A program made the position numbers and the translations under genes. Of a DNA stretch of 64,000 nt, positions 7,945 through 60,116 are shown piece after piece. The DNA is from Cyanidioschyzon merolae (Eukaryota). Within the stretch, counting starts at the first letter, position 1; each line of letters starts with the position of its first letter. Location of the stretch: the NCBI GenBank assembly GCA_000091205.1, contig AP006496.2; one strand, 5' to 3'. The notes beneath the pieces are model-generated. The model had not been told where the DNA came from, did no database searches, and saw only the letters and a list, made by a program, of their open reading frames with translations.

Positions 7945-9906
7945 TGTGGCGTTCCAGCCTCGCTCGACAGCTGACCAGTACCATACCAGTGTCTTGGCGC
8001 AGGCGAGGATCCGAATCTTCCCCCTGTTTCCTAACGTCTTTATTGCATCCGAACTCCACAGCGTTGCAGCGCAGCGTCTGCATCAGTAAGAGTCGATTCC
8101 CTGGCAAGCTCGCTCGACGTAAAGCCGGTGGACGATCTGGAAGCACGAGATATTGCCTGAGGTTGATCGAGGGGTTCAAGTCTCGATGCAGTATGGACGG
8201 GTATGTGTGTGTACTTGCTGCTGGCGTCACGACGCAGCGAGCCTCACGCCTTTGATTGCCGCTGCATCTCATGGTCGAGCGGCTTACCGTACGCCATCTC
8301 GTGCGTCTGTCTCTGTTTCGCTCTCTGATTCTCTACCGGATTCGACACGCGCCCGTGCTCATGACACGTGTATGTCGTCCTGAACACATCGGCGGGCATC
8401 GTGCAGCGCGCATTTCTGTATTTACTTCTGTATTTCGGCATGCTCATTGCATGAGCAGGCGTCCAGCATTTCTGCGTTATAGCGCGCCCTGCTCCATGGG
8501 TTACCTATCAAAGAAAACTGAGCAGCTTCATCTGCTTCGCATTGAGGCCTTCGGCTCCGTCCCCGCGCTCTAGACGCACAGCGAAGGCCATGGCGCTATC
8601 TGACCTGGGAATCACGCGCACAGCGAAGCCTTTCCCCGCATCTAGCTTGAACAGTTGGAAATGCGTCGCGCTGCCCGAAAGGATACTTTTCGGCACCTGC
8701 GCTGTCGAGGTCCCGATCAAGGACGTGGTGCGTCGACCTTTCAAGGTATTCTGCGGACTGTGGGTGCGAGTCTCTGACCCGAAGATCAGGCCGTGTTGCG
8801 GGTTTTGTACCGGGCTTCATTCACGCTGTCCCTCGGGGCGGGTTCAGCCGTAAAAAGCGCAGAGCAATGTGGACAGCTGGCAGCCCTGCGCCCGCAACAC
8901 GTACGCATTGTTGGTGAACGAGCTGCGTCACAGCGCGCGAAACTGAGAGAGTCCTCATCGAGTGCGAAGCAACGCGACGCCAATTGGCGACCTGTATCTC
9001 GCTTTACTGAATATTCTCCCTGCTGACGTGTCTTAGCAGGGAGGCGTCGAGAGTGGTTCCGGCGTCATGCGCCCGATCCGTGAGCTTTTCCTTCCTGTCC
9101 CTGTACATCCTCTTCGTCTGAGGGATCCTCCTGCTCGTGGCGGAGCGGCCTCTTCGCCTTTGCGTCCGCTCGGCTGCGCGCGCCTTGAGCGCTTTCGAGT
9201 AAGGGGGCGCATCGTACCCAACGATCAACCCAGAAGAATGCGTGATAGAGACGCAACGGAGCGCTTCGACGGAGTATGAGGTGCTGAACGAAGCCGTCTG
9301 CTGGGCGATCACTAGGTGGCTCTGCAATGAAGTTGCCTCTGGGCCTGATGGTGTCGGAATGCTCGCTTATCTGTGCTTTGGGATCCGTCGTTCGCGCCTC
9401 GTTGGGTACCCTTGTGCGGGTCCACCATCGCTCCCGAACAAGTCCCTTTGTGGCGTAATCCGGAAACCGAGCACCTCATGTGAGAATCATTGGCGCCGCA
9501 GTGCGAAATCGATAAATTGTGTCGTTCAGCACGAAACAGTCTCCCATACAAGTGCATTCCCTTCTGTATCCGTCTGTGTCTCTTTGGTGCCGCTCGTACC
9601 GACGGTACGGCATCATCACAGTCGATGACTGCTTCCGTGGAATTCCGTATCGAAGAAATGGAGTGGCGTAAATTGACGAGGAGACACACTGATCAACACA
9701 GGGTTTGGTACCGTCCGCATTGAGTGCGAATCGTTCATCATGCAGAATACGAGTGGGTAGCTTCATCCAGCCGCTGACCCTGGACTGACTGACTTGTCCA
9801 AGTAAGGCTGTTTTCTCGTGAACTACCGGTGACAACACCTTGTGTTTCCTGTTCCTGTCTCCATTCTGCAGGATACCCTCCGTTTTCTTGAATGCGTGTG
9901 AGAGAT
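7945..9906. repeat. Direct repeat copy 1 (1962 bp); partner at 27294..29255
   Basis: Base-by-base comparison shows a constant offset of 19349 between the copies, with only a handful of substitutions over about 2 kb. Flanks diverge at 7944/27293 and after 9906/29255. Only short ORFs lie inside. Confidence 0.9.
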
Positions 9907-10279
9907 GTAGAGAAAAAGAACGTGCTGATATAGCGACTGCATACGCGATCTGCGTAGGCAGCGATGCCCTGATGCCCCTGTCCGTAAAGATCCTAAATAT
10001 CGAAGATCTAAACACACCCCTGAGGCTCTGCAGCACAGGCCAGCGGGAGAACGTGTACTCCGGTGCGCGCGGAGACTGCCAGCCAGCTGGACGCAGCGTT
10101 GTTCGCGTCCCTTAGCTGAGCACGACTAGCGGGGCTCAAAGGTCCCCTTTTCTGACGCAAGCGCTTGGGGTTGTTGCTCTGGCACCAGTGCGCATAAGGC
10201 CCTGTGCGAAGCAAGCAACACTGTTGAAGGGCGAGCAGCGAACGACGACGCATACGCGACGGTTTCGCTCAAGATACTC

Positions 10280-13200
10280 ATGTTTTTTCGACCGCCGTAT
10301 CTAGGTTCGTCCCGCATCGATGAGATTCTCGATGAAGCCGAACGTGAAGGAAGGGTTGGGGATCAGGAGCGTTCGATTTTCCATAGTTCGGATCGGCAAG
10401 CGTCTCAGGATAGGACAAGTCCGAGTGCTGGTGACGGGCGTGCGGCCTCAAGCCAGCGACAAGGCGACGTGTCTGAAGAGTCTGACGCAACGGCGTCTGG
10501 TGGAACCTCAGTCGACCCTGTACGGCAATTCCAAGCGGATGAACAGCAACAATCGCGGATTAGGCGTACAGTTCGGACGATTCTCGCGGAAGACGACCTC
10601 ATTCCGGAGTGCAAGGCCATGAACTTGCGTCTTTTCGAATATTTCTCGCAACCGACTGCGCTGCGCTCGCTCGTCCAGTTCGCAATCGGTTGTGATGATG
10701 ATGAAGAACACAAGTACGCTGGCATGGCTACGGAGGTTCTATGCTCAGATGTTGAGCGCCTCAACGAGGCCTTTATCTCAAACGTGGATGTTTTGGAATT
10801 GTTCCTGGGCTTCGTGCGCCGCAAACCACCACTCGCGGCGGATCTGGTGTCGAATTTTGCAAAGATCTTTCTCTGTATGCTCCGAGCGAAATCGGAAGAG
10901 TTGCTTTCCGCAGTCGATGAGCACAAGTCATGGTTCTTCTCGCAGGGCATTTTACAACATTTACAGCACTCTGCGCTCAGCAATTTGATTATTGAGTTGC
11001 TGATCCAGAACGAGATCGTGATCTCCCGCAAAGCCGTGCACATATACGCACAAGCTGAATTGTTGAAACGCCTCGTGGATCTGTTTGTCAATGAAACAGA
11101 ATCGCCTGACGATGAAACGCTCAGCAATGTCATGAGTATCATTGTTTCGCTCAGTGGGCGAGCGGTGCCGCTTGCCGAAGCCGCGGATATCTTCCACTCG
11201 GTTGGCGGCATACCGGATGAACTCGAGGGCGGATCCATCCTCGAGACCGCTGCAAGAGCGAATCAGCAGCACCAGCTTCGAACGGCGGCGAGCGGGCAGA
11301 CCTCGATATGCCCCGATGAGCGCGACGAGTCGAGCGCCACGGCCATGAACCAGGAACGCAAAGCGCTCAAATCTCTGGACCTTTTGCGGCAACCGGAGCT
11401 TCTCGCGCGTTTGCTGAGCGCATTTCGCCAGAGCGATGCGCACCTGCTCTATGGTCTAAGTATGCTCACGGAGCTCGTGTCTATTAATAAGGAGCTTTCT
11501 CATGAGTACGAAACAGTGCAGCACCACTGGGAACAGACGAGCTTGCGCCTATCCACAGCCAATGAACGACAAGATGCGGACACAGCGCGAGCCCCGTTGT
11601 CTTTGCCATCGTCGTCGTTGTTGCGTCCATCGTCGGAAACGACTGCATTTGCCAGCAGCGCCGAAGACAGCGACACGAGCAGCACGTCCTCAAGCGAACT
11701 GGGACGGACGCCTGCGGCCGCACACTCCATACGAAGCAAGATGGGAGAATTTGAAACCGCTTTGCAGGCGCATTTGCCGTATCTGTTGTCGCGACTCGAG
11801 GATGATGCTGAATCGGGGCATTTCGGGGTGATTCGATTGAAGCTCGTCGAGTTTTTGATTCAGATGATGCTGGATGTATCGCCGCAGCTTTGCAGCAGGC
11901 TTCTTGCGATGGGAATCCCTGCAACGCTGACTCGCTTGCTACGAGCCTACCCATGGGTCTCCGTGTTCCATCATCTCTACCATCGTGCGCTTCAGGAGAC
12001 ACTCCTTACACCCTTTCAATCATTCCTTCAAGCAGTTCAACCGGCGCTCGATGAGGCAAATCTGCAGGCTATCGCGGATGGTACCCTGATCCCCGACCGT
12101 TTACGCGCATGGTTTCTCGAGGCAAATATAGTCCAGAGTTTCGTGCAGCTCCAGCAGGTTGCGCTCAATGCGGAAAGCGGCCGCATATCACCCGAAGATA
12201 TGCGAGCGCTTGTGCGCGCTGTACCCCAACTCGAGTGTACGGATCACGCGGCTCGAGCACCGCCTTCGCGCATACGAGTGGCACTTTCCGCGCATCTCGC
12301 GGAGATGATACTGGAAATCTACGAGCAGGTGTTCGTTCCGCTCAGCAAAATGACTGCCACATGCACTTCGGGACAAGAGGACGCTGCGCTGGCAACCGGT
12401 GCCCCTGGCTGGCAACCAGCAACGACCAAAGAGGCAACGGCGGGAACAGCGACTGTCGTGCCGCTGCTCCAGCGCACGAAACGCTCGAAGGTACCGCTTC
12501 TGGCGTTCCTGTCTCCGCTTCTCGGGCTAGATGAAGAGGGCGGCACGATGCTGGCGGCTTGGGCTGCCCTCGAGGCGATTGCTACCGGTCCCGTCTATGC
12601 CGAGAAATCCAAGCAGCACCGGCAGCTGGGTGGCCGTCGACCTAGCGGTCTCTCTTCGCACAGCCTGAGTGAAGATCTCGCTCAGCTGCCGACACTCACG
12701 ACCGACAACGCCACCTCTATGGGCGAGGGCGACGACGAGGACGGTGACGTCGGCATGATAGGTGGTGTCGAAGACCGCCAGGATGTGCTCGAAGATCGCC
12801 GACGCCCGAGACTACAAGGCAGACCCCCGGATGGTGCCGTCTTCCAGGAGGACGCGAGTTCGTTCGTGGAGCAGCATGATCGAATGGATCCACTGTTCGA
12901 GGATATGGACGAGGATCGCGATGAATATTTACCGGCACCACCGTTCATAGATAACGAACAGCAGCAAGCATCCTGCGGCGCCAAGGATGCGGGAACAGGG
13001 CCGAGTTCGGCACCGGAACTCAGCGTCGATGACATGATGACGGGTCTCAGCGAAGGCGAGCAGGAGTCGCTCACGCACTTCACGGATTATCTGTCACAGC
13101 GCGCACGACGAACACCGGCAAACAGCAATCAAAGTGGAGAGCGCTCTCAGCGAAAAGATGCTCGGGATAATCAAGAATACTCCGTAACGTCCGCCGGGGC

Positions 13201-13366
13201 GCTCGACCTCCCCACCGCAGCGTCTCGCAGTGGCGCTGTCGAACGCGAGTCAGCATCGCAACCAGCGCCTAGGAACGCATCCCAATTGAATGCCTTCAGG
13301 CAGAGTGAAGCACCCGATAACGACTGGGTTGCATTTGCTGATGATCAACACGAATCTGGCGACTGA
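10280..13366 (+). CDS. SAPS-domain protein (Sit4/PP6 phosphatase regulatory subunit family)
   Basis: ILAEDDLIPECKAMNLRLFEYFSQPTALRSLVQFAI...DDEEHKYAGMATEVLCSDVERLNEAF aligns with human PP6R [36 protein letters not shown]...[25 protein letters not shown]. The N-terminus MFFRPP...SSRIDEIL resembles MFWKF...SSHIDTLL. ATG start verified. The C-terminal acidic tail is low-complexity. Confidence 0.8.
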   Translation: MFFRPPYLGSSRIDEILDEAEREGRVGDQERSIFHSSDRQASQDRTSPSAGDGRAASSQRQGDVSEESDATASGGTSVDPVRQFQADEQQQSRIRRTVRTILAEDDLIPECKAMNLRLFEYFSQPTALRSLVQFAIGCDDDEEHKYAGMATEVLCSDVERLNEAFISNVDVLELFLGFVRRKPPLAADLVSNFAKIFLCMLRAKSEELLSAVDEHKSWFFSQGILQHLQHSALSNLIIELLIQNEIVISRKAVHIYAQAELLKRLVDLFVNETESPDDETLSNVMSIIVSLSGRAVPLAEAADIFHSVGGIPDELEGGSILETAARANQQHQLRTAASGQTSICPDERDESSATAMNQERKALKSLDLLRQPELLARLLSAFRQSDAHLLYGLSMLTELVSINKELSHEYETVQHHWEQTSLRLSTANERQDADTARAPLSLPSSSLLRPSSETTAFASSAEDSDTSSTSSSELGRTPAAAHSIRSKMGEFETALQAHLPYLLSRLEDDAESGHFGVIRLKLVEFLIQMMLDVSPQLCSRLLAMGIPATLTRLLRAYPWVSVFHHLYHRALQETLLTPFQSFLQAVQPALDEANLQAIADGTLIPDRLRAWFLEANIVQSFVQLQQVALNAESGRISPEDMRALVRAVPQLECTDHAARAPPSRIRVALSAHLAEMILEIYEQVFVPLSKMTATCTSGQEDAALATGAPGWQPATTKEATAGTATVVPLLQRTKRSKVPLLAFLSPLLGLDEEGGTMLAAWAALEAIATGPVYAEKSKQHRQLGGRRPSGLSSHSLSEDLAQLPTLTTDNATSMGEGDDEDGDVGMIGGVEDRQDVLEDRRRPRLQGRPPDGAVFQEDASSFVEQHDRMDPLFEDMDEDRDEYLPAPPFIDNEQQQASCGAKDAGTGPSSAPELSVDDMMTGLSEGEQESLTHFTDYLSQRARRTPANSNQSGERSQRKDARDNQEYSVTSAGALDLPTAASRSGAVERESASQPAPRNASQLNAFRQSEAPDNDWVAFADDQHESGD

Positions 13367-14065
13367 TGAGTTTGGTCATAGTCCGTGCCGCGTTGCACCA
13401 GCCGGTGTTTCTCGTTGCACTGTGAACGCAATGGCTTGCTGCGCTTGAGCTTGAGCTTTCGCTGACGACGTTGCGGACGCTGCTCCACATCTAGAATCGC
13501 TTCTAGCGCCATGGAAAATACGATACGTTGTTCCTCTGGGGTAAACGTACTCCTTCTGACTGCAGCGCCGGTAGCAACATAGCCTCTGCCCAGAGGCAAG
13601 CCTGCTGCACCCGAGCTCCCGGTCAACAGCCACTGCAAAAGCGGTTCCAGCAGCAGCGGCGGCGGCAGCAGCCGTCATCGTTGTTGCCATGATTCGAGTA
13701 GCCGTCGATGGGACTCACGGAGCGCGGAAACGTTTGTGTGAAGGCGGCGGTGGAGTCCCGGGCGCCCCGCAGCATCTGCGTCTCTTCGAGTGCCTCGATC
13801 GATGCGTCTACCCGGTTCCATAGAAGCGAACGAAAGCGTCCTAGCGCCGTTGGCAAAGGCTGCCACCATCCACTTGTGCTTTACGTTATCTGTGCTCTTA
13901 GTATCGAACCAGTATGCGTGGTTGCCTCCGAACACCGGCAACCAGCGTCCGAACGCAACTGCTCGGTGCTAGGTTGCAACAAACGGGGGCCACCAAAGCA
14001 CCCGTACCAATCGGTACGGCAGCGGACCCCAACGGATACCGCCCTGCGTTTTGCTGGTGCCGCTC

Positions 14066-15340
14066 ATGTTCCTTCACGTGACGCGCTGCAGTTCTTTTCA
14101 AGAACGAGACTATGTCCGATCAACAAGGAATCAGTGCCAGACACCAGGATTTCTTTCGAGTCGCCGTCGCTTTCGGTCGGCGAAAAGGTTTGACCTGCAG
14201 TCCGCGACGACTGGGTTTGCGGAAGGCACCAGGCAGGCGGTAGCCATCCTCGGTGCGGCCGGGTATACGGGTTCGGAGCTCGTGCGCTTGCTTCTCAGGC
14301 ATCCGCACGTTGAGATCAAGGCTCTGAGCGGCACGGAACGTACCAGAGGGCGTCCCTACGGTCAGGTTTATCCGCAATACGCGTTCGAGAGCATCATTTC
14401 TGCGAACGGGAAGCAGGGACCTTCCCCAGTGCGCTCGTTGCCGCCGCTGTGTTTAACGGAGGAGGTTGATTTCAGTCAAGTGGACACTGTTTTCTGTTGT
14501 TTGCCGCATGCGACAACGCAGTCCATCGTCACAAGCATTCTCCAGAGCGCTGTCGGGCGTACCCCACGCGTCATTGACCTCTCGGCAGACTTTCGCTTAG
14601 CGGACGTGCACACATACGCCCACTGGTACGGAACGCCGCATCGGGCACCAGATCTTCAAGCTGAAGCAGTTTATGGTCTCACTGAGTTTGCCCGAGCTGA
14701 TATCAGGAGCGCGCGCTTGGTGGCCAACCCTGGCTGCTACCCAACGGGTGCCCAGCTGGCGCTGGTCCCGCTCATTCGCGCCCAGCTTATCGCGCTTGAC
14801 GACGTGATAATCGACGCCAAGTCTGGAGTGACTGGAGCAGGTCGCTCGGCAAAGGAAGCCAATTTATTCTGTGAAGTGACGGAGGGTATGCACGCGTATG
14901 CAGTGGCGAACCATCGTCACGCTCCCGAGATCGAACAGGGCCTCAGTCGGGCAGCGGGACTCGGGAACAGCGGTGTGGTGGTCAACTTCACCCCACATCT
15001 GGTGCCTATGGCACGCGGCATTCTTGAAACGATCTACGTGAGATGTCAGGCCGGAGTGACACCGGGCGACTTGCGCGCATGTCTCGAACAGGCGTACGGC
15101 GAGGAGAAGTTCGTGCATGTGCTTGCAGATCCACAGCAGGTTCCTCAGACGCGCTATGTGCGCGGAAGCAACCACGTCGTGATGAATGTCTTTCCGGATC
15201 GGTTACAAGGGCGAGCGATTCTAGTCGTTGCCTTTGATAACATCGTGAAGGGTGCCAGCGGTCAAGCAGTGCAGAATATGAACGTGATGATGGGTATACC
15301 GGAACACACGGCTTTGGAGCAGGGCCCGCTCTTTCCCTAA
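14066..15340 (+). CDS. argC: N-acetyl-gamma-glutamyl-phosphate reductase (stand-alone ArgC) with an N-terminal targeting-like presequence
   Basis: Motifs AVAILGAAGYTGSELVRLL (NAD-binding), ANPGCYPT (catalytic Cys), DAKSGVTGAGR and NIVKGASGQAVQNMN are present. The ORF-track start at 14051 is TTG; the first ATG is at 14066. About 60 aa of R/S-rich presequence precede the Rossmann motif. Confidence 0.9.
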   Translation: MFLHVTRCSSFQERDYVRSTRNQCQTPGFLSSRRRFRSAKRFDLQSATTGFAEGTRQAVAILGAAGYTGSELVRLLLRHPHVEIKALSGTERTRGRPYGQVYPQYAFESIISANGKQGPSPVRSLPPLCLTEEVDFSQVDTVFCCLPHATTQSIVTSILQSAVGRTPRVIDLSADFRLADVHTYAHWYGTPHRAPDLQAEAVYGLTEFARADIRSARLVANPGCYPTGAQLALVPLIRAQLIALDDVIIDAKSGVTGAGRSAKEANLFCEVTEGMHAYAVANHRHAPEIEQGLSRAAGLGNSGVVVNFTPHLVPMARGILETIYVRCQAGVTPGDLRACLEQAYGEEKFVHVLADPQQVPQTRYVRGSNHVVMNVFPDRLQGRAILVVAFDNIVKGASGQAVQNMNVMMGIPEHTALEQGPLFP

Positions 15341-17489
15341 CGCTGTTCGATCGACCACGGGATGATTCCTCCTTGGATTTGGGTAAGGGTTTTAGGAATC
15401 ATGGAGCGCGTGCAGGGCGCCTGTCGCAATCGCAGCTAGCTGGTATGCATTCCGTGCTTTCTGGCGAGCTTGCGCTTGCACCTGCACGGTGCAGTCCATT
15501 AGGAGATGCCACTGCTGCCGAGCGGCCGCCTTTCCGTGCGAAAGCAATGAAATAGACGTGATTGTGGACCGCATGGAGAGGGTGAATGTTCTTTCCCTTG
15601 ACGTTGTCTCCCGGGAAGCAGCATGTCTGTGTGGATGTCCGGATCGCGTCACCGCAGCTGCCACTGCAGCCGTTCGTTTTTAAAACCGAATGCTGGACTG
15701 TCTGTTCTTTTTCTGCCTTTCGATTCTATTCCGAACTTGGTTTCGATCTGCAGCCTCGTCATTCCAAGTGCAGCAGTATGGGCTTGTGGATCCATACGTG
15801 GTTTTAGGATTCTCGGTCGTTGTTTTGGAGTGGCTCCTTGGCGGCTTTGGCACCGGAGTTGGTTCCGTCACCGTTTTCAAGATGATTCGTGACACCCTTC
15901 GACAAGGCTTCGTTGAATACATGATACCATCATCCAATTCATACGCACAAGCCTCCGCGCGTCTCTTGTATTCAATTCTAGCGTGCTCACATCACGAATG
16001 CGTCGTATGTTCAAGGTTTCTGGTCCACCACTGCGATTTCTGAGGTCAGCCATTTGTGCCGCTGCATGGGGAACGATAAGAACTCGATATCGTGCCTTGG
16101 CGAGTCGTTCCTAAGCAAATACCAGAAGCTCACGGATGTTCTCGTACCAGATGATAATCGATTCGGGTGAAAAGACAAATCTCCACCGCTTGAGGCCATC
16201 GACGCTGCGGCATTGAACAGCCGAAGTATACTAGCGCTCTCGGAATACGCTCCCATATGCTTCTGGCATTCCTGTTTGCATCGGAAAGGGTCTTGGACTT
16301 GGATTTCAGTTCGCCCAGCAATCGCTGCTAGGGCAATTCACGTCACCGCTTTGTACGAAGAGAGCGTTGACGGATCGGAATTTCTCGACTAGTTCTTCCT
16401 CTTTGATGCTCCACTCGGTACTTGTTTCATCATGGACAACATCGCGTTCCATGAATCCTTTACTGGATGAAACAGTGCGCGTTTGCGCGTGTCGCGAACA
16501 AAGTACTCACCAGCGGGCTTGCTCTGCTGAGGCCCGTGATCGTGAGATACGCCACGGGGCACGGTAACGAAGGAGGGTACCGCGTTGAGCCCTCTGCGCC
16601 CGCCAGGAGCATGTACTGGACAATGAAGCGAGCGTTTACGCGCCACTAGCCGGCCTCGGATGTAGAGGAGGAGAAGGAGGAGGAATTTTGGTGCCTGCAT
16701 GGGAACAAACGCACCACAGCAATGCGTAACCGCTGCATAATTCGCACCGAGGCTCTATCCGAGGAAGATGAGATTGGCAAGCGAAGCGTGGATCGCAACA
16801 TCTGCCTTTCCATGAAATGTGTCGACAGCAGCCTGAAGTAGCGAAATCAGGATCTTAAAGTTGCCATCAACATGCTTCTGCAGCTGGCAACAGTGCTGGA
16901 CCAAAAGGTTTGACCAGCATACCTGACGCCAGAAATAAGAGAGAGGCGGTGGAAGCAGCCTCAGAAAATCCCGCCACGATTCGTGTTGAAGATAGTGGCA
17001 AGCGTGACCAACCTATATGGTCTACTTCAGGAGTAGAAGACCCGTTCCGTTTTCTTCTGGAATGGGTGTCTAAAGATTCTGAGTGTATTCTGCGAGAGCA
17101 TGGTCTGCTATGAGCGCGATGCTGCAGCGCGACATGCGCATTCTTCCAAAATCAGTGTCGGGCAGATCACGGGCGCATCACTGGTATTGCTATCAGGGGC
17201 TGGAGCATGTGGCCACTAGCGGGCACTCTTTTCGCTCACGCTTCAATCATTTGGCCCGGACTCTCTCACATGGTACCTCCCTGCTGGCAGCACGACACCG
17301 GGATGGCGTATGAGATGAAATGCAATGTGTTGCTGGCGAAGCGCACGACCTGCAGAGCCTCGCAGCTGCGCTTGAGCCTTATATCATCTAGAACGCAGTC
17401 TTTTGCGCGCAGATTTTCCCCTGAAAGGCAAAGTACTGCCAGATTGACGCTGCATTCATGTGGCGCCCTCGTCAGCTCAGCCTTGCGAG

Positions 17490-20400
17490 TCACGAACCGA
17501 GTTGCAGCGGGCCATGCACTGGACTCGGAATTAATGGAGGTGGTGGAGGTGGTGGAGGTGGTGGAGGCGGAACGATCGCCCCTGGGGCCTTGGTCGCCAA
17601 GTCGGTGGTACCCGCATGAAACGTCGCTATCTGAGGTGCCATACCATCACCCGTTTTCCACCACAGGAGATGCGCGTTTTCTTTCTCGGCCTCGTCCAAG
17701 TCAGCGCCAACGCGCTGTCGCCAGGTACAAGCAGTATTTTCATTCAGAGCGCGAGTCTCAGCGAGTGATTGATCCCACAACTCTACGAACTGCCATAGAT
17801 AACGAAACAGATCATCACGAAGACTCGCTCGTCGAGTCGCGACTTCCGGGCCGCCCACAAAACCCTGCTCCGTCATAGGTAAAAGCAGGAGCGTATCTTC
17901 AACTGCTTCGTTCATTTCCCGCAGGCGCTGCGCAAGCTGTTGTAACTTCGCTCGCGCCGGTTCCAGCCAGCGACGAAAGCACCTTGAGAGCGCCCGCCCC
18001 GTCGGCTCATTTGCGGAGAGCTCGCACTCGGAGGTGAGCTCCTGTAGATCATGCTCTAGCTCGCTGAAACCGGTGGATATGTGATCGAGTTCAATTCGAG
18101 ACGCAGTTTGGACACTGGCGAGCTCAGTTCCTAGCTCCAAATCTGCAGCCTGATGCTCACTGCTTTTCCGGAGCACTGCGCCCGCATAGGATATCACTGA
18201 ACGAGAGCGAGCGAGCTGCGGAACCGAGTCGATGGTAAAGCCAGCGGCATTCGCCCGCGCAGAACCGGCATTGAGAACATTTCCAATCACGAGAAGCACT
18301 TCCAAAACAAGACGCAAGCGCCTGGACTGGCGAATCTCCAGACACGCTCGGGTCACGCTGGTCACCGCAGCGTCCAGTTCCTGGAAGGCTTCCGTGAAGC
18401 GCCGCATGGTGCTCCATGCCGCGGCCTTTGCAGCGATACGCGGTACCCGCTGCAGCATCGTGAGCATAAACCGTTCGGGATACAGCAGCCGTTCCAGAGC
18501 AATGTCCTTTCGGGTCTGGAAGGCCTCCAGCAGGCGCGCCTGCTCTGGTGCTGATGGAAGCATCGGTGCTAGAATTTCGAAAAAGTCTGGATCGAGGGCG
18601 TCGAGATCACCGTGTACAAACGCATCGGCTACAGCCTCGCTAGAAACGTTTCGGAATCTGCCCAGCAAAATATCGAGGTTGCGGACGTGCTTCGCGTCCA
18701 GCACTGCGAAGCTCTCCGGTGCGTCAGCTGGTGCCGTTGACCGGCCAGCAGCAGCGCCGAAACCGGATGCCACCTCTTGGCTGAAGAGCTTCGCCATTTC
18801 GTCCATATCCGGGATCCAGCGCAGTGGACGCAGATCTGACCAGATGGAGCCCGGTACTTGGTGCAATGGAACACAATTCCAGTGCAAGCGTCTCCAGACA
18901 CGCGTTCGGGGCCCATTGCCGCCATTGGCACCTGCTGGTGTCGCCAGGTCGAGAGCCGGTGACGGCAGCGGTGGCAGCGGCGCACGGGAGACCGACGGAA
19001 AACGGGGTCCCGGCCGACGTACCGGGGATCTGGCGTCTGATCTCGTTGCAGCAGCAACTGCAGCAGGCTGCTGTGCCTTACCCGAGGAGATGGACAGCCC
19101 GACGGGTCTCTGCTCGAACCTCGAGATCCTTTCCGAGATGGTGTCTGGGGGCGGATTTCCCGTATCCCTGATCACGTCTACATTCGTTGCAAAGTGCAGC
19201 ACCGTGAGACTCTGGTCCGGAGCCTCCAGCTGGGGCGCAATGGCCGATGTCTCCACCAGGGACTGCTCCACAGCGACGTTCGTGCAGGCGGCTCGTGAAA
19301 TGGATACTTGTCCACCATGGTCCACAACAGAGAGATCACCATTCGGTGCGAGTATGACAACGGCCTCTGACGAATGATCGGCAGCGAATGCGTCAGCGGC
19401 CTGGTGATCGCGCGCTGTTGCTACCGCAAGCGGATCCAGCATCGAAGTCTGGACCTGGACGGAACGCGTGCGCTTCGGCTGCACCGTCCGATGGCGTCCA
19501 TGGCCGATGCCGAAGCAACCGATTGGCAAACAGGCCGCGGATAAGTACGTGGACGTTAGTTCAGGAGCGAGCCTTGTACAGCCCATAAGAGCGAGTGCCC
19601 TGAACGCTCGAAATACCAGCAACACGCTATCCCGCTGGTATGCGTTCGGGGTGCGCACGCACAGGTGCACGCCCGCCGGCGCACGCATCGGAGCGGAGGC
19701 GGCACGCATCGGCCGTTCGTGAATCTCCAGCTGCAACGTGTCCTCGGCACGCATCGGCCGTTCGTGAATCTCCAGCTGCAACGTGTCCTCGGCACGCATG
19801 TCTATATGAAGGGATTCGCTCCACGGGCGGCATTTGGGGTAGAGGCCGATGATGCCGCGCTGCGATAGCGTCAGCGTGGTGCGCATCCGCCGGTTGGGTT
19901 TCCCCGGCGGTCTCTGGATCCAGGAGCGAGGCAGGCGCCAGGTGCCACGCTGGAGCACCGCTTCGACATCGACGCGCAGTTCCTCGTGAATGGTAATGAC
20001 GGATGCCGTACGAACCGTAGCACCAGTGTCCAAAACGGCTGCAATGATACAGCCGACGTCGTCTGCAGTGACTGGGTAGCGTGCTTGCGGAGGTCCGTAC
20101 TCGAGGTCGGCGCGTTCCACGATGGTTTCGGTGTCGCTGTACGGAAGGGTCCGTCGCCACTGCTGCACGACACCGTCCCAGTACAGGTACGCGGCTGTTT
20201 CGGTGCGTCCACGGAGGACGTTCGGTGGCGAGACAGGGTCGGTGGCCGCGAACGCTCCAGCTCGCTGCGAAGCGACGGACGCAGCGCTCGAGCCGACCGC
20301 TGCCTTCATCGATGAAGCCAGACTGCTTGAATCCATCTGCAACAGGACCAACTCTTCTCTCAGCGCTGCAACTCGTTGCATTCGATGGAGAAGTCGCAGC

Positions 20401-20741
20401 CAGGCTTCGGCTTCGAGCGCTTCAGCAAAGTCTATTCGATAGGCCACCGGGAAATCTCGCTCCGCCGCAACGCCGCTGACGAGAAGCAAACGTAAAGACG
20501 TCGAAGAAATCCGCTTTATATGCAGCTTCGAGACACGTAAACACAGGTTGTCATGATGAAAGTGCACGCGATCCAAGGTCGAGTTCACGCACGCGTTCGT
20601 GGCGACTGTCGTGCCGGAAACACCGTCCCCGCGCTCCACAGTGAGTAGAACCGAGGTTTCAGGTTGGAACGCAGCCCGAGCAACTGCCTCAGCAATACAG
20701 AGCCTCCGCTGCGTAACCAGAGCCAAAGCATTCGTTTCCAT
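17490..20741 (-). CDS. Formin (FH2-domain actin nucleator)
   Basis: FH2 lasso and core motifs appear in the canonical order: VWRRLHWNCVPLHQV...IWSDL, then HVRNLDILLGRF...DPDFFEILAPMLPSAPEQARLLEAF, then LLVIGNVLNAGSARANAAGFTIDSVPQL. A short PLPPLPSP stretch precedes FH2 and a P13 tract lies at the extreme C-terminus. The ORF-track start at 20798 is GTG; the first ATG is at 20741 (cat at 20739-20741). Confidence 0.85.
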   Translation of the reverse strand: METNALALVTQRRLCIAEAVARAAFQPETSVLLTVERGDGVSGTTVATNACVNSTLDRVHFHHDNLCLRVSKLHIKRISSTSLRLLLVSGVAAERDFPVAYRIDFAEALEAEAWLRLLHRMQRVAALREELVLLQMDSSSLASSMKAAVGSSAASVASQRAGAFAATDPVSPPNVLRGRTETAAYLYWDGVVQQWRRTLPYSDTETIVERADLEYGPPQARYPVTADDVGCIIAAVLDTGATVRTASVITIHEELRVDVEAVLQRGTWRLPRSWIQRPPGKPNRRMRTTLTLSQRGIIGLYPKCRPWSESLHIDMRAEDTLQLEIHERPMRAEDTLQLEIHERPMRAASAPMRAPAGVHLCVRTPNAYQRDSVLLVFRAFRALALMGCTRLAPELTSTYLSAACLPIGCFGIGHGRHRTVQPKRTRSVQVQTSMLDPLAVATARDHQAADAFAADHSSEAVVILAPNGDLSVVDHGGQVSISRAACTNVAVEQSLVETSAIAPQLEAPDQSLTVLHFATNVDVIRDTGNPPPDTISERISRFEQRPVGLSISSGKAQQPAAVAAATRSDARSPVRRPGPRFPSVSRAPLPPLPSPALDLATPAGANGGNGPRTRVWRRLHWNCVPLHQVPGSIWSDLRPLRWIPDMDEMAKLFSQEVASGFGAAAGRSTAPADAPESFAVLDAKHVRNLDILLGRFRNVSSEAVADAFVHGDLDALDPDFFEILAPMLPSAPEQARLLEAFQTRKDIALERLLYPERFMLTMLQRVPRIAAKAAAWSTMRRFTEAFQELDAAVTSVTRACLEIRQSRRLRLVLEVLLVIGNVLNAGSARANAAGFTIDSVPQLARSRSVISYAGAVLRKSSEHQAADLELGTELASVQTASRIELDHISTGFSELEHDLQELTSECELSANEPTGRALSRCFRRWLEPARAKLQQLAQRLREMNEAVEDTLLLLPMTEQGFVGGPEVATRRASLRDDLFRYLWQFVELWDQSLAETRALNENTACTWRQRVGADLDEAEKENAHLLWWKTGDGMAPQIATFHAGTTDLATKAPGAIVPPPPPPPPPPPPLIPSPVHGPLQLGS
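17536..17570. repeat. (GGAGGTGGT)n microsatellite encoding the C-terminal poly-proline (P13) of the formin on the minus strand
   Basis: ggaggtggtggaggtggtggaggtggtggaggcgg is read directly. Confidence 0.9.
19701..19790. repeat. Perfect 45-bp tandem duplication (2 units) in-frame inside the formin CDS
   Basis: Unit gcacgcatcggccgttcgtgaatctccagctgcaacgtgtcctcg occurs at 19701..19745 and 19746..19790. It encodes MRAEDTLQLEIHERP twice. A partial third unit follows. Confidence 0.9.
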
Positions 20742-23708
20742 TTCAATGGAAAGGGAACGTGCTTGCCCAGAGTTTACCGAGCAGCCACGGAGACTCACGT
20801 TGCAGGCGAAAGGAGAGAAGCGAACCGATCCGCCCCGGGAATTTGAATCCGCGCAGCGCGATCGCTCGCCAGCGGCGGTATGATGGCGGCCTCATTCGCG
20901 TGCATGATAGGATGTACCACAACGGCCAGTATACCCGGGAGGGAGTATGGGTTATGGAGCTTGGACCTAGGTGTAACGATGGGTGCTTTACCGTACACCG
21001 ATATGAAACGTGCAATCGGTGAGCGCTGGTCTGCGCGTAAACGTTTCGTCAAAGAAGATAATCGGGTGGTTTCGTTCGCCTGTGTCTATGGTCATCGATG
21101 CTGTTGACACCGCAATATACGGAGCGCCGGAGGAAAGCATCGCAGCATATCAAAACTCTTGGATGGGCTAACTGGATCCCGGCATTTCCACTGAGATTCC
21201 CAGAATACGACGCTCGGACAAGGCGGAAGAACGCGGTGCGTCGCGCGTTCGTGCTCGTTTCAGGAGCGCATGATGCATAAACTCCATTTCGAAAAAACGT
21301 ACGCTGCGACCCGCATAGGTCCGTAGGTTCTGTGCGGAATTCAAGCTTTCATTCACGTTCTATCACAATACAGTTGAAACTGCGCCCAGCCGCGGTCTCG
21401 AAGCAGCCATCAATGCTGTTTGCGCGCACCATCTCGGGGCAAGCCTTGCTGGATGTGCGTTTTCAGCATGTTTCGAGGCGTCTCGCGCGACAGCGGCCAT
21501 GCTTTCGTGTGCAGGAGCGCTTCCATCTATCGCGCGGGTTGCCGGTCTTAGAAGGACGCGCATTGCGTTGCGGAGGCATGCCATCGGCTTGTCCAGACAT
21601 GCCTCGGGAACGAGACGCTCGTCGTGCACAGTATCGCTGCCGCCGTGCAGAGGTGACCCTGTTCATTAGCGGTGTCACCATGGCTCTGGGGCCGAATACC
21701 GGATGCAGCACTTTCCTCCATCTATCCATCCGAACGTCCGTCCGACCATTGATCTGCTGCCTTGTGTGCCAGTAGATGTAGACGACGTACGTAGACCAGC
21801 GAGCCGCTTGCTGCAGATCTATATCCTGGTGTCTGGTTCTATGGATGCGGAACGTCGCCAAGCTGTCCGGATCGGTCACGGAATCCGCCAAAGCCTACGT
21901 CGTGCGCCCCGAACATGCTCGTCTCTGTTCAACGGTACAGAAGCGGGATGTCCCGGGTCGTTACCTAGAGACATGATGCGTGTTCGGAGCGCATCATTCC
22001 CTGATCCGAGGTCCCTGTCAGACGCGTCTGCGATTCACATTCACCGGAAGAAGCCATCATCCATGTCACAAGGCTCACGATTGTACTCCATTATGGAATC
22101 GAAGCTCGTCGCTTCCGAGACTCGCAAACGAGGGATTGTACTGCGCGTCAAGCTTCCAGCTTACGGCAAATGTCATTATTCATTGGAGACCCAGCGAGGC
22201 AGGCCCACAAACCTATGTTACCTGGACGCCAACTCGCGACGCTGTCGTCTCGATGCACGCCTTGTAACGTCCTGGGATTTCAGGCGCACACACGAGAGAT
22301 ACCCGACTGCCCGCGTGCATCATCCGATACGGAGCGCGCACCAGCTGAGCGTTTTGATGAATTATGTCCAAAGGCTGTAGTTTATTTCCCACGAATACAG
22401 TGAGACAAGAGAGCGTAACAAAAGAGGAATCATGCGTTGTGCTCTCGATCTCCCTATCATTCAGAGCCGAGGAACGCTACGAGGTGTCCTCATGTCCGTG
22501 ATCATTTCGGGGCGGGAAAGCGAGGATGAATCACGACCGGATCCTCCGAATGCGCGAAAACCGTCAATTGCCTGTTGATGAAACTTTCTCGATGATGCGT
22601 CAACTGTGGGGTCGCGGGAAACGGGGTATACCTCGAGGCGACACTTCGTGGGGCACGGCGAATCTGTTTTGGACCTTTAGGGCATCGGCACGGTCGCATG
22701 GTGGATCAATTTGTTTATTCTTATCTGGGGAGGTGTTCTGGAGTCGCTCGTACGCGACAGCGTCTCTAGTGGAACAGAAATCTTGTTCTGGCTACGGGCA
22801 GCTTACACTGCTGTCAGAAGCATCTGATTTCATGCATGGATCCCTACGATGCGAAAAAGAACAGAGATCAACGAGTGATTAGCAACTCGAGAACAGCTTC
22901 TTCCCGGCTTCACGGTGAGCGTTGAAAGGGAAAAAAGTTTTCCGTAATTTCGAAAGTGTATCGTGTTGGTGGAATTTGGCGCGAACCGGATGAGTCCGTC
23001 AGGCCAGAGCTCGCTGTGCCTCTAAGGTGCCGGGCCAGTAGCGAGTTCTGAGCAGCTCGTCCGCAACGCAGTTTATTCTGCGACTAGGGGCAGTTAAGCT
23101 GCGTCTGGGCGTCGCCCATGTTGCAATTATCTCCTAGCATATCGCTTCGCTCTGTCGCAGGCGGCAGGTCTGCTTACCCATTTTTCAGGCTCCCAGAATG
23201 CTTACATAATCCGATTCCGTACCTGGTGAAGCGGCCCGCAATCCGATGCCCTCAGCAGTATGGCAAAGCGTTCTTGTCCCCGTGCTGCATCCGCATCAGC
23301 GGTTTAGGCGCAATCGCGGATGCAGCAAGACAGGCACTCGCAACACAATGGAACATTCAAAACGGCAAGTGCATCCAGGCAGAGGCAAGGGCCATGGAAC
23401 TTGGACGTAGAGTGCATCATGGTGGACGCTTTCCCGAATACCAGTTTCCAATCCGCAGGCGAGGATCCCCGATCAACAGAAACGTTTTATCAAACGAAGA
23501 AAAAGATGCGTTGCACGTCGATACCCGAAAAGGGGCATCGCACGCCTGATGATGCAGCGTCGGCGCCGCCGCTGCCGCCGCTGCCGCCACTGCCCCAAAC
23601 GTACACCCATCCCAGCAAGGTGTCTAGTGACACCTGCTTCGTTTACGAAACAGCAATAGCACCGTTTGCGCTGGCACCGCACTCTAGAGACCGTACGTTG
23701 CTCCGGCT

Positions 23709-24326
23709 ATGAGTGAGAGAGAGAGTCCCGCAGATGCTGGGCCCGAGAAATCCGTGCACCCGCTTCAGTTTTCCTGGACGTTTTGGTATGATATGCCCCG
23801 GGGAATCAAGCCTTCCCAGGAGAACTGGAGCAACAACGTCAAGCCGTTTGCCGAGGTCGACACGGTGGAAAAGTTCTGGGCCGTCATGAATAATATCGTG
23901 GAACCGTCTCGGCTTCCGCCTGGTTCCAACCTGCACGTTTTCAAGCACGGAATCAGGCCTGAGTGGGAAGACGCCATGAACGAGGCCGGGGGCAAGTGGG
24001 TAGTCACCCTGCCAAAGAAGGAGCTCCCCCGAATCGATGAGTTCTGGCTGAACTCGCTCATTGGGATTCTGGGAGAACACTTTGAAGCGAAGGCGAGTGA
24101 TGACATTTGTGGGCTCGTGGTGAGTGTTCGCAAAGACAGAGGCCGACTGGCGCTTTGGAACAAGAGCGCTTTACGGGAGGACTTGCGGCGTTCTATTGGA
24201 AAAAGGTGGCGCGAAATCCTGTCTAGTGGCGGACTGCCGCGCGATCTTGATCTTGAATACATGGTACACAAGGACGCTATGGCGTATGATCGCTCGTATG
24301 TGAGTAAGGCGCTCGATCGCCTCTGA
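23709..24326 (+). CDS. EIF4E: Eukaryotic translation initiation factor 4E (cap-binding protein)
   Basis: HPLQFSWTFWYD, FKHGIRPEWEDAMN (cap-stacking W/E) and GGKWVV match the eIF4E cap-binding signature along its 205 aa. ATG start verified. Confidence 0.9.
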   Translation: MSERESPADAGPEKSVHPLQFSWTFWYDMPRGIKPSQENWSNNVKPFAEVDTVEKFWAVMNNIVEPSRLPPGSNLHVFKHGIRPEWEDAMNEAGGKWVVTLPKKELPRIDEFWLNSLIGILGEHFEAKASDDICGLVVSVRKDRGRLALWNKSALREDLRRSIGKRWREILSSGGLPRDLDLEYMVHKDAMAYDRSYVSKALDRL

Positions 24327-26300
24327 AACCTTGGCGCTGGGAGCGAGCTGTGGTGCGACTGCCAGCACCAACGGGTACGCGTGCGACACCTGGACTCGGC
24401 TTTGGAAACGATCACCGCACGCTGCGTGTAACGTCGTCGGCAAAGCCGTTTTCCCTGCGTCTAGCATGAGCCGGCGAAACGGAAATCGGGCACCGGTGTA
24501 GCGGGTCCAGGAAACGAACCCAACGACAGCATCCGGGGCAGCGGAGGCGGCTTCCACTGGCCAGTCGCGTCGTGAAAGCACTCTGCCGGTGCTGGACGCG
24601 GGAACGGGCATTGCAGCTCGATATCAACGCACGTTGAAACACATGTGCCGATATGCTGCTGGTGCGACTCGGAATGTGCGTTTCCATTCTGGTGCGGCAG
24701 CAAGATCCCTGTAAGAGGCGTAAGTTTGGCGAAGCGCCTTTCGTGACCGCTTCTCTCTGCTTTACGGTGCGGCTTTCGTCGCAAATGGGGTCCAACGGAA
24801 TCAGAGATCAAAAAGAGGCTCGGTTTGCACCAGAGTGTTTCGCCAGCACTTTCGGACGATGAAAATCTCTGAGCGCTGCGGATATTGGCAGCAAAGCCTT
24901 CACTGATGGGAGCGTTTCGGTGGCGCTTCGAGAGTATTTGCATGATTGCGTGCGCTGTTTTGGTGTATCGTGATTGTTTCAAGTCATTTCAAAAGCTATC
25001 CGGATTCTGACTTGAGCTGTACACATGCTTTACTAAATGTGAGCCTCGGTTCCACTGGCCAGTACCGACTGTAAGACTTGGAGTAACCTGCTTTGCGCCT
25101 TGTGAAGAAAACTGTAAACGCCCATCCAGCTCGTCTTGAAGAGCGAACGCGCACGCCTTTGTTGCGTTTCATGCACGCCCCAGCGCGTACTGGAAGCGCC
25201 CGAGACACAGCGCAGTCGTGCCGAGTTTATGTCCAGAGCTGGCATCTAACCTATGTACACTGCTAGGCATGAGACGCGATCGCGTTCCAGACGGAAGCGA
25301 GTGCATTCGAATCGGTCCCTGTTCATGATGCGGTTCGGCGCCCAAGCACAAAGTGCGACGCGCATTGATGGACGCTCACCACAACCAGGGCGCCACGGCT
25401 TTCCCTCGTTGCTGTCGCAAGATGCCGCATGTTATCCCGTCAGCAAGCGAGCCGGGCATCCAAACTTCTTCGCGCACCCGTCTCCATCCCATAAATAAGG
25501 ACTTGCTGCTTACGAAGATCTACACCCTCGATAGTACACTGCATAGGAAACATATGGCAGCTTCGCGTGGCCTTGCGCGGTGCCAACACGCGCACATGAC
25601 GTGTGGAAACGATGGACCGCAACGCCAGGGCGCAGATGCGAACAGCCTCGAGTCGATGCCCATACAGGTAAGACGACGCTGTGCAGTCATCATGTGGCGC
25701 TGGCGCCGGCCTTGCTGGCGCCGTCGTGGGCGCTCACCGCAGGCACTAGGCACCCGGAGGATCGCATGAATGCGCATGTAATTCCGAAGGCAGGCACATC
25801 CACTGCTGACCGATGGAACTCGAACGTGTCGCGCGGCATGGAAGACGCTCTCCCCGATACCGATAGCAATCGCGCTATCGGGCACGTCAGGTTCGTTGAA
25901 CGATTCTGTAGCCAAAAAGGGGTGATAAGCACAACGGGTCGAGCACGCACACATTCCCGTTCTTCCATCGTATTGAATGCGTTCCTGAGTGCCGCCACGC
26001 TGCGCAGACCTGCCCTCATGACCCTGAAACAACAATATCATGGATAAGCTGTCGATCCTCGATGAGTCCGTGAGGCAGCGTGCAGCGAGGCGCCTCCGAC
26101 GGACCCCGTCCAGGCGCGAAACTGCGGCACGCGCAACGTCCGTTCGCTGCTCAGCGTGTCGCCTGCCGGGAGCCTCTCTGCAGACAGGGCCTATCGCGGC
26201 CATTCACGGGATCATCCCGAGTTCCAGATGCCCGCCAGCAGTACCGAGAGGGTTTCCATTCATGACTGAACAGAAGGGGCATCGGAGGTGGCGGCAGGCC

Positions 26301-26816
26301 TCAGTGATGGCGGCCGTTTCGTGCGAGATGCTCCGCGGGACTCGATCGCAGGCTCGCACCTCGCTCCGCCTCGTACTCCCCGTAAAACGTGACCACATTC
26401 TTCTCAGTCTCCCAGAGACGAATTCTGTACAGCAATAATCCAAGGTGTGGCTCAAGCCAACCCCAAATGACCGCAGCGAGGTTCTCAGTCGTTGCCGGTA
26501 GAGCGTGCGCATAACCGCCGTTTTCTGAAGCAAACTCATTTACATCCTCGTCAATCGACGCATGATCGAGCTTCTCGAGCACATGTTTCTCGATTACTTC
26601 CTTCAATAGACGCATGTCGAGCACCATACCGGTCTGAGCATCGACTGGACCTCGAACCGTAACCTCCAGAACATAGTTGTGTCCGTGGCGTCGTGCGCAC
26701 GGCCCAAACAGCCTCTCGTTTTCTTCCGGACTAAGCTTGCCCGCTCTCAGCGCATGACATGCGGAAAACGTCACAGCGCGTGTTAACTCCACAACCGGCC
26801 TCTGGATATGAACCAT
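26301..26816 (-). CDS. PTS: 6-pyruvoyl-tetrahydropterin synthase (PTPS)
   Basis: FSACHALRAGKLSPEENERLFGPCARRHGHNYVLEVTVRGPVDAQTGMVLDMRLLKEVIEKHVLEKLDHASIDEDV aligns with mammalian PTPS [32 protein letters not shown]...[32 protein letters not shown]. The zinc-ligand histidines and catalytic Cys are conserved. The CDS is started at the ATG for MVHIQRP (cat at 26814-26816), because the ORF-track N-terminal extension to 27098 does not resemble PTPS. Confidence 0.8.
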   Translation of the reverse strand: MVHIQRPVVELTRAVTFSACHALRAGKLSPEENERLFGPCARRHGHNYVLEVTVRGPVDAQTGMVLDMRLLKEVIEKHVLEKLDHASIDEDVNEFASENGGYAHALPATTENLAAVIWGWLEPHLGLLLYRIRLWETEKNVVTFYGEYEAERGASLRSSPAEHLARNGRHH

Positions 26817-27293
26817 TGGTCTCGAGCGACTCTGGAGCGAGAGCGCCCACCTGCAACGGATACAAAGCTCGCGAACGGTTTCGTGACGCTGCCCGATCAA
26901 TCTCCCGAAAATCGCGCCAAAAGAGGAGCCTGCGCAGTAGCGCCAGGCACCGTTTCTGGAGGACTGGCATTGAGGCATCGAACTGGTATCATCCGGTAGC
27001 AGTATTTTCGGGACCAGGGCCAAGACGATTGTGGCTCTCAAAACGTGTCTATGTGACGCTGATCCCGGTCCAGTGTTCACTGCAGGGCTAGCACACACAA
27101 CGAACCAGCGTCTTGCTGGTTGTAGCGTGTGTTGCAGGCGCTCGCGAAGGTGCTGGATGCGCAGCCTCCGCCGCCGCGAGGCTACTCTATGGTACCAGCA
27201 CGGAGCTGCGCCTGTCCGTACTCAGGGATATTGAACCTTGGAACGTCAATATACTTTCTTGATGGCATGGGAAGATCGTATGTGGTGTCGGCC

Positions 27294-58581: not shown

Positions 58582-60116
58582 AGACACCACGACCTCGTAA
58601 TCGCGTTCCTGTCAGAGGTGACCTCAACTGGAGGCTTCGACCCATTCCCGCCCGCTGGTTGCACTTGCATCACGACCATTTGCAAAAGCGAGACCCACGG
58701 GATGTTTCATTCCGATGGAACGACCACGCTACATACGCTGTTGGTGTGTAATCGCCGCGAATGTCTGGCTTTGCAGTTGCTGGGTTCACGTCGGTAGCAG
58801 GTCCGTCACTTGGCGCTGAAGCTGCAGAACATTCTCGGCGAGTGTGCCTGTCGAGCACAGCAGGCGAGCGAATGCGGGAACATGGTTACCGTGTAACGTC
58901 GCCCCGAAGGTCGGAAAGCCCCAAAGACGCAGTCCTTTGAATGCGGCTGGCTCAGTGACCCTGCTGGTCAGCCTGGTGTTCCAGTACCTAACGCCGTTGC
59001 GCACTGAGCACGCGATGGAAAGGCCGCAAACCATGCTGGGCACCTGGTATCCGAGCGCATGTGGCGCCGAAGTTATGGCCTCTGGCTTGGTCCTATAGCA
59101 CGCCGCGCTGCTCGTTTTAAGCAGCACGCCTTGTCTAATAGGCATGCTTCGGGCGCGGCGAGCACCAGGGACCTGGCGGGTCCGCGGACTCGTTCCAGGA
59201 CCTGCGGGCATGGCGCACATGTGTGGGTTTGTGTGTACACGGAACCCCGACACGAGAGATATCCAATGCCACGATCGACTCTTGGTAGAACATAGTATCT
59301 GCCGGATATTCTAGGCATCCCACAGGCCGCGGAACGGCGCCCAGTGGTCAGTCTGCAAGCCTCGGGGATGCCATGCGCCATGGACAAACAGGCGACGCAG
59401 AGCAGCGCCCTCGAGTAGACGTCCGTCGGGGTAAAACATGAGGTCGCGCTGACCCTGCAACGCGCCTCTGGCAGCGTTTTCAATAGCGGGGTAGGCGTCC
59501 GTTTTGGGTTTGCCTCCTGGAGCGTTCGCGGATCGCTCAGACCCGTATTTTATCGGAGGATACTCCCCGGAAACAGCGAGAGCATAAAAGCGTCGGCAGC
59601 GGAGCTGGGGTCTGTTCCTGGTCGCTTCGCAGGCTCCGTCCATTCATAACGCTCCAGTTCCATGCATTCATCGATCTCACACGACCTACCATGTAAAGTT
59701 TCTGACGGTACTGATTGCCGTCCAGCTTGCAAGCGGGGTCAGATGCTGCTTGCAGCCATCGCGCCTGAACAAGCGACCTGTATACCATGTTCGCACACAA
59801 AAAAGCGCACAAGGTGTTTTTCTATTCATTGGCATGCGCTGCGGTGCTCTCATGGCAAAAGCGTGCAGTACGGGCGGCGCGACTCGAACGCGCGATCTTG
59901 TGCGTGTTAGGCACACGTCATAACCATCTAGACCACGCCCGCGCGACGAATAAGCATGCACAACAATTGATATATAAATGCTTTGGAATCTGTGCGCAAG
60001 GATGGCGAGTATGATTCGGATTCGCAGGGGCGCTGCTCCGAGCCCCGAGGTACTGGACGTCCTCGTTGACTAGCGGAGCGTCTCAGACAGACCCAAGAGC
60101 GTTGTGGGTTTCACTC

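Follow-up and report, generated by a model that had tools for sequence, protein, structure and literature searches.

A red-algal formin of Cyanidioschyzon merolae with a proposed profilin-binding polyproline tract C-terminal of FH2

Models of formin elongation assume that the proline-rich formin homology 1 (FH1) region is tethered N-terminal of the formin homology 2 (FH2) domain, and textbooks and surveys alike treat this order as universal (e.g. PMC2386819). In the survey by Grunt et al. 2008 (PMC2386819) FH1 is placed before FH2; polyproline was 'detected visually' and scored as present or absent, and its position is not recorded. The same survey lists three formins in Cyanidioschyzon merolae, with FH1 scores of '+' for CMF060C, '-' for CMN049C and '(+)' for CMN212C. 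Here we describe a C. merolae formin gene, probably CMN049C or CMN212C, or an ortholog of one of them, in which the polyproline tract follows FH2. It lies in a stretch of 64,000 nucleotides of GenBank assembly GCA_000091205.1 (contig AP006496.2), hereafter the window. We consider the balance of the evidence to lean modestly towards a predicted functional formin belonging to a clade confined to red algae, with the profilin-recruiting proline-rich element relocated C-terminal of FH2 in that clade. A full-text literature search, with subscription journals outside its coverage, found no formin with FH1 after FH2 and no red-algal FH2-polyproline architecture. A 2026 paper on a Neopyropia formin mentions neither prolines nor CBM domains.

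The formin gene and its C-terminal tract

An uninterrupted open reading frame (ORF) occupies 17490..20798 on the minus strand, with 1102 codons when counted from a GTG. Translation probably begins with the ATG at 20741 (METNAL...; METNALALV), because Met1 of a metagenome protein (P0152) and the N-termini of orthologs align there. The resulting coding sequence (17490..20741, -) comprises 1083 amino acids plus the stop, needs no intron and is intact in a second strain (metagenome contig L004, discussed below). These are exactly the limits given in an earlier note on this DNA, which had been made from the letters alone and had called the gene a formin with its FH2 motifs in the canonical order. 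Both the identity and the motif order are borne out by Pfam, where FH2 (PF02181) matches ORF residues 636-973 in forward order against model positions 12-348 (E=2.1e-55; 188.8 bits, against a gathering cut-off of 34.8). FH2 was the only family detected in the ORF at E<=1, without Drf_GBD, Drf_FH3 or Drf_DAD. The N-terminal GBD/FH3 (DID) and C-terminal DAD that define diaphanous-related formins are therefore not found in this protein, whose N-terminus is predicted to fold as PH-like modules.

Among solved chains, FH2 of FMNL3 (4eah) and of mDia1 (1v9d) come nearest in sequence. The conserved actin-contact isoleucine is present (RNLDILLGRF, aligned with QNLSIFLGSF of mDia1), as is the GNxxN motif (IGNVLNAG), and the lasso tryptophans W10, W23 and W31 (numbering of FH2 alignment A1) are invariant. 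An AlphaFold model of FH2 plus tail, built from a nine-sequence alignment, has a mean predicted local distance difference test score (pLDDT) of 68.7, with the helical FH2 at 80-95 and the last helix ending at residue 996. The FH2 domain is placed at 17754..18893 (-), where the Pfam match ends at 17880 and the last predicted helix at 17754.

The polyproline tract is a run of 12 prolines (P12) at ORF residues 1077-1088, or protein residues 1058-1069 (17535..17570, -). The earlier note had reported an in-frame tract of 13 prolines after FH2 near the C-terminus; its frame and position hold, and its length is 12. At the DNA level it consists of 3.7 copies of a 9-bp unit, TGGAGGTGG on the plus strand, which is a rotation of the GGAGGTGGT unit described earlier. 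P12 is the sole run of at least six prolines in all six frames of the window. Downstream of it come 14 more residues (LIPSPVHGPLQLGS) and the stop (17490..17534, -), and a mostly disordered linker of 61 residues separates it from FH2 (17571..17753, -; alignment A1 and AlphaFold2). The linker holds a G..W motif (CTWRQR in C. merolae) that is kept between the last FH2 helix and the tract in all members of the clade described below. Since pLDDT falls below 50 from residue 1016 (model residue 427) to the C-terminus, P12 included, the tract is predicted to sit in a flexible, disordered tether about 60 residues past the last FH2 helix. P12 thus shows one usual property of an FH1, at least five to six consecutive prolines in a disordered segment (pLDDT below 50), and lacks the other, a position immediately N-terminal to FH2, as it lies 61 residues past the last FH2 helix. 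On the upstream side the richest stretch is APLPPLPSP, with five prolines in 12 residues. The earlier statement that just a short PLPPLPSP (18957..18980, -) precedes FH2 is correct, and this segment is not conserved, with no counterpart in Cyanidiococcus, Cyanidium or Galdieria.

An antisense ORF of 381 amino acids (18232-19377, +) is contained within the formin gene. Its richness in Ala, Arg and Ser is typical of a GC-rich gene read in reverse, and the ORF is very unlikely to be a real gene.

Conservation of the domain order in red algae

Relatives were retrieved by an exhaustive HMMER search of 1.84 billion representative proteins. The best matches are from Cyanidiococcus, Cyanidium caldarium, Galdieria phlegrea, G. 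sulphuraria, Porphyridium purpureum, P. aerugineum, Bangiopsis sp. and Rhodosorus marinus, with one further metagenome protein (Joint Genome Institute, JGI). P0002, P0005 and the remaining relatives from this search did not come up in a word-indexed one. The Cyanidiococcus yangmingshanensis formin is 48% identical and is the sole close named relative; that of Cyanidium caldarium is 37% identical over the full length.

The C. merolae formin and eight relatives were compared for the position of their proline runs. No run of at least four prolines occurs upstream of FH2 in any of these nine sequences, and the first downstream tract begins 19-98 residues past the FH2 match. A single C-terminal tract is found in Cyanidium (P11; C-terminus ...GFIPPPPPPPPPPPMSLLPPAAR), G. 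phlegrea (P9), G. sulphuraria (P9-P10) and, after frameshift correction, Cyanidiococcus (P14). The relatives from Porphyridium, Bangiopsis and Rhodosorus carry two to eight FH1-like tracts after FH2 and none before it, and three of them are complete ORFs from transcriptomes of the Marine Microbial Eukaryote Transcriptome Sequencing Project. The Rhodosorus tail is built of repeated LAPPPPPPPR...SPK units, an arrangement like that of a classical FH1.

We placed this order in a wider set of 155 proteins with an FH2 match, made up of the top HMMER matches and a few members of their clusters. Counting runs of at least five prolines, 55 have them only before FH2, 15 only after, four on both sides and 81 on neither. 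Those with runs only after FH2 are the red-algal group and a single further protein (P0056), which has PPPP repeats upstream, and the earlier description of the C-terminal position as unusual for a formin agrees with these counts. In a neighbour-joining tree of FH2 (50 sequences, 333 columns), which combined ten red-algal proteins with the 40 next-best FH2 sequences, the ten group together with 100/100 bootstrap support. Another formin of G. sulphuraria (P0017), which bears no tract before or after FH2, is not part of this group.

The codons of the tract differ between species, with 9-bp CCTCCACCA / CCT-CCA-CCA units in C. merolae versus 6-bp CCGCCA/CCGCCT units in Cyanidiococcus. Because the DNA repeat units differ while the amino acid and its position are conserved, the tract appears to be kept at the protein level. 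The earlier note had regarded the polyproline as repeat-driven; its presence in all ten clade members, across the split between Cyanidiophyceae and other Rhodophyta, speaks against that view. Judged from the sequences, the FH2-then-polyproline order is an old, conserved design and not a repeat accident. The N-terminal domains vary within the clade, PH-like in the Cyanidiophyceae and two CBM_20 elsewhere, and the tract persists; this suggests that its role is tied to FH2.

The annotated Cyanidiococcus formin (VWRR01000009.1, F1559_004293) has a tail without prolines (L001 12850-13200), and we considered whether this ortholog lacks the tract. The DNA contradicts this, since it contains the homologous frame as well as a P14 tract. 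The gene model is 32 nt longer than the protein, with a 32-nt pseudo-intron leading into a non-homologous frame. A segment homologous to the end of FH2 (...RASLRDDLFRYLWQFVELWD...LDEAEKEN) lies in a second frame, and 14 CCN codons followed by a stop lie in the frame of the main ORF. P14 can be read through only with two frameshifts that offset each other; the second of them adjoins a T5 run. We infer that these frameshifts are assembly errors, and the deposited tail is probably wrong.

Gene order around the formin is shared with Cyanidiococcus (window 9600-27100 versus L001): an unknown ORF of about 1000 amino acids, a semialdehyde dehydrogenase, the formin, eIF4E and PTPS. The first of these is a 1028-residue ORF in the window (10280-13366, +) and has no Pfam domain. 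The Cyanidiococcus match and this synteny mark the window as DNA of a cyanidialean red alga with few introns, and count against a kinetoplastid origin, which GC content and the long ORF without introns had at first suggested. Elsewhere, the only tRNA found in the window is a tRNA-Val (AAC) at 59868-59942 (-).

The fusion partner of FH2 outside the Cyanidiophyceae is an observation in its own right. Five proteins from Porphyridium, Bangiopsis, Rhodosorus and one metagenome (P0006, P0010, P0011, P0012 and P0014) carry two CBM_20 domains and a coiled coil fused to FH2. The fusion points to a connection of floridean-starch granules with actin assembly, and we know of no description of it.

N-terminal modules, the 45-bp duplication and a second strain

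AlphaFold2 predicts that the N-terminal 495 residues (mean pLDDT 62.8) form a PH-like domain with a long helix, then a second beta module. The PH-like domain (residues ~25-140; 20322..20669, -) has seven strands and is followed by the helix at 108-149, with pLDDT of 70-89. The second, beta-rich module (residues ~175-385; 19587..20219, -) is Ig-PH-like, hosts a 15-residue duplication and has pLDDT of 70-92 outside this insert. Foldseek matches to the N-terminal region include PH, RanBD and EVH1 folds, and the G. sulphuraria ortholog has a weak Pfam PH match. For the second module, PDB chain 4dix_A ranks first (E=2.2e-5, 233 columns); this is the Ig-PH domain of SCAB1, which binds actin in plants. 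It is thus the best structural match to the duplication-bearing module, but the resemblance is at the level of the fold only (10% identity), and SCAB1 has no FH2. As SCAB1 is a plant-specific actin-bundling protein, the match raises the question of whether Ig-PH is an old archaeplastid actin-associated module. The two Galdieria orthologs P0005 and P0154 differ from the other Cyanidiophyceae in a glutaredoxin-like N-terminal extension (residues 1-70, weak Pfam match), which may represent either a genuine fusion or two gene models joined in error.

The duplication consists of two exact, in-frame copies of a 45-bp unit, each encoding MRAEDTLQLEIHERP, where zero comparable matches are expected in shuffled sequence. 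The earlier note had recognised this perfect tandem duplication, given there as 90 bp at 19701..19790; the exact copies described here span 19710-19799. Copy 1 (residues 315-329; 19755..19799, -) includes a strand at 322-327 with pLDDT of about 77-84, and aligns with the single unit of Cyanidiococcus and Cyanidium. Copy 2 (residues 330-344; 19710..19754, -) forms a low-confidence loop (pLDDT 29-40) that directly precedes the last strand and C-terminal helix of the second module in the AlphaFold2 model. It is not present in the four aligned cyanidiophycean orthologs (Cyanidiococcus, Cyanidium and two Galdieria), each of which has one unit. With one unit in all four orthologs and copy 2 in a loop, the duplication therefore looks like a 15-residue loop insertion in the Ig-PH-like module that is apparently tolerated. 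The first 10 bp of the unit, ATGCGTGCCG, recur a third time at 19700-19709 (-) as a microhomology flanking the duplication; the three exact copies are spaced 45 bp apart and there are none elsewhere in the window. The duplication probably arose by slippage or unequal exchange between these 10-bp direct repeats. By itself it is an ordinary in-frame slippage product of little importance.

Both repeats could be compared with a second strain. Scanning metagenome contigs with a 27-mer across the repeat start retrieved a 17.8-kb contig (L004) that is 99.2% identical to window positions 23681..9612, with 99 mismatches over 14 kb. Its formin ORF is intact (1083 amino acids) and has 18 nucleotide differences, comprising 13 synonymous and five amino-acid changes, a substitution pattern that indicates purifying selection. 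L004 encodes an identical P12 and the same two 15-residue copies. Because this contig was assembled independently, the duplication is not an assembly artefact, a case that had been put forward in advance as one that would overturn the claim. Its presence in L004 shows, as far as two strains can, that the duplication predates their split. The note's expectations that both features are likely polymorphic and that the duplication is very recent find no support in this comparison, as the L004 strain differs at 0.7% of sites and has the same P12 and copy number, both copies already being present (n=2 only).

The sole clustered indels between the window and L004 are intergenic (13646-13655, nine extra bases in L004), which suggests a small variable repeat there. 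Two other sequences, JGI 3300050388 Ga0506598_003381 and Logan SRR29605731, are 99.3% identical to window positions 21053..19902. Past the junction at 19902 they continue into unrelated sequence with an opposite-strand ORF of 491 amino acids that has no Pfam match, leaving a formin truncated to 285 residues. They end upstream of the 45-bp repeat and so are uninformative on copy number. The junction may be a structural variant or a chimeric assembly, and the two records possibly come from one sample. Metagenome protein fragments are 97-99% identical to the formin, and no identical protein was present in the searched collections.

Possible roles of the tract and comparison with known formins

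In solved FH2 dimers the N-terminal lasso, to which FH1 is usually attached, wraps around the C-terminal post of the partner. As the lasso encircles the post, both chain ends emerge together, and delivery from the C-terminal side is geometrically plausible. The C-terminal tails of FMNL3 and INF2, with WH2-like motifs, and of mDia1, with its DAD, bring actin monomers to FH2. The dimer geometry and the tail properties reportedly go back to Xu 2004, Otomo 2005, Gould 2011 and Heimsath & Higgs 2012. By analogy, the FH2 dimer of the C. merolae formin would cap the barbed end as other formins do, its PH-like and Ig-PH-like N-terminal modules would probably localise it, and the flexible C-terminal tail would capture profilin-actin through its polyproline and pass it to the barbed end. 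P12 would then be an FH1 equivalent that binds profilin. A profilin (CMP220C) and an expressed actin, the latter driving the formation of tentacles, have been reported for C. merolae (PMC7503314).

The broader proposal is that red algae have kept a clade of permuted FH2-FH1 formins since before the split between Cyanidiophyceae and other Rhodophyta, with profilin-actin delivered from a tether on the post side. We put this forward tentatively, at slightly less than an even chance. Several points weigh against the main reading, that of a relocated profilin-recruiting element. A single tract would be a minimal FH1, and canonical FH1 regions usually have several. The neighbour-joining tree is a quick one, built from sequences picked by similarity to the query, and Florideophyceae and Bangiophyceae are not among the top matches sampled. 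The Cyanidiococcus frameshifts could also be real lesions rather than assembly errors.

Two other functions for the tract are unlikely, and to a similar degree. In one, the polyproline docks another proline-recognition module, for example in a DID/DAD-like autoinhibition through the PH/EVH1-like N-terminus of the formin itself. EVH1 domains bind proline-rich peptides, the N-terminus has a PH-superfamily fold with EVH1 and RanBD among its structural matches, and the lack of a detected canonical GBD/FH3 or DAD calls for some other regulation. However, the mesophilic members keep and even multiply their tracts with CBM_20 in place of the PH-like N-terminus, and pure runs of 9-14 prolines are typical profilin ligands, whereas EVH1 favours FPPPP-type sequences. 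In the other, the region is a generic formin tail that contacts actin or other polymers and thereby tunes nucleation, processivity, bundling or the binding of microtubules, and the prolines are only a stiff spacer. Such a role would fit the influence of the Capu, mDia1 and FMNL3 tails on nucleation and processivity, as well as the conserved G..W motif between FH2 and the tract. Known functional tails are, however, basic or amphipathic and not homopolymeric proline, and the PPPPPP-x(15-25) arrays of Rhodosorus and Bangiopsis resemble a classical FH1.

An origin as a functionless microsatellite that expanded neutrally at the gene's 3' end is improbable. The perfect 9-bp unit and the variation in length from 9 to 14 prolines across species are what it would predict, but it accounts poorly for the shared position of the tract in all ten clade members, which lie on both sides of the deepest red-algal split, for different DNA units encoding the same residue, for an identical P12 in the diverged second strain, and for the lack of any other comparable proline run in the window. 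Least probable is an annotation or assembly artefact, in which the protein ends before the tract (an outcome the earlier note had named as refuting) or the duplication is erroneous: problems of frame are indeed seen here in the Cyanidiococcus assembly, but the frame in C. merolae is unbroken through FH2, linker and tract, the independently assembled L004 has an identical structure, the Cyanidium and Galdieria gene models and the three transcriptome ORFs include the tract, and the window consists of uninterrupted single-exon ORFs, fitting an intron-poor genome (about 38 introns are reported for C. merolae).

If delivery from the C-terminal side is real, proximity to the lasso/post junction would matter and not the polarity of the chain. 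The red-algal clade would then be a natural experiment on the tethered-delivery model, and the C. merolae protein a simple one-tract system in which to measure delivery. C. merolae can be engineered by homologous recombination and, to our knowledge, neither Arp2/3 nor myosin is reported for it, leaving a minimal actin toolkit. The protein is a candidate for the formin behind the tentacles of C. merolae, which are driven by actin, or behind the contractile ring in Cyanidium. For surveys, it follows that formins scored as 'FH1 absent' may carry the element downstream.

This formin can be set beside four described or newly recognised groups. The FH1-less formins (Dictyostelium ForC, together with C. 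merolae CMN049C, scored '-', and CMN212C, scored '(+)') likewise have no FH1 at the usual position, but here a tract is present on the other side of FH2. The tail-recruiting formins (FMNL3 with its WH2-like motif, INF2 with WH2/DAD, mDia1 with DAD, and the Cappuccino tail) share a flexible tail element after FH2, with a proposed role in monomer supply. Their elements bind actin directly and are amphipathic or basic, whereas that of the C. merolae formin, in which no WH2 or DAD motif was detected, is homopolymeric proline and would act through profilin. Canonical FH1-FH2 formins (mDia1, FMNL3, DAAM1 and Bni1p) have the same FH2 motifs and a disordered polyproline adjoining FH2; the C. merolae protein differs in having a single tract, C-terminal of FH2, and no GBD/FH3 or DAD by Pfam. 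The red-algal CBM_20-FH2 formins of P. purpureum (KAA8499585.1), Rhodosorus marinus (A0A7S3EHE1), Bangiopsis and P. aerugineum belong to the same FH2 clade and share the FH2-then-polyproline order and the G..W motif, but have two to eight tracts and an N-terminus made up of a coiled coil and two CBM_20 domains, which bind starch.

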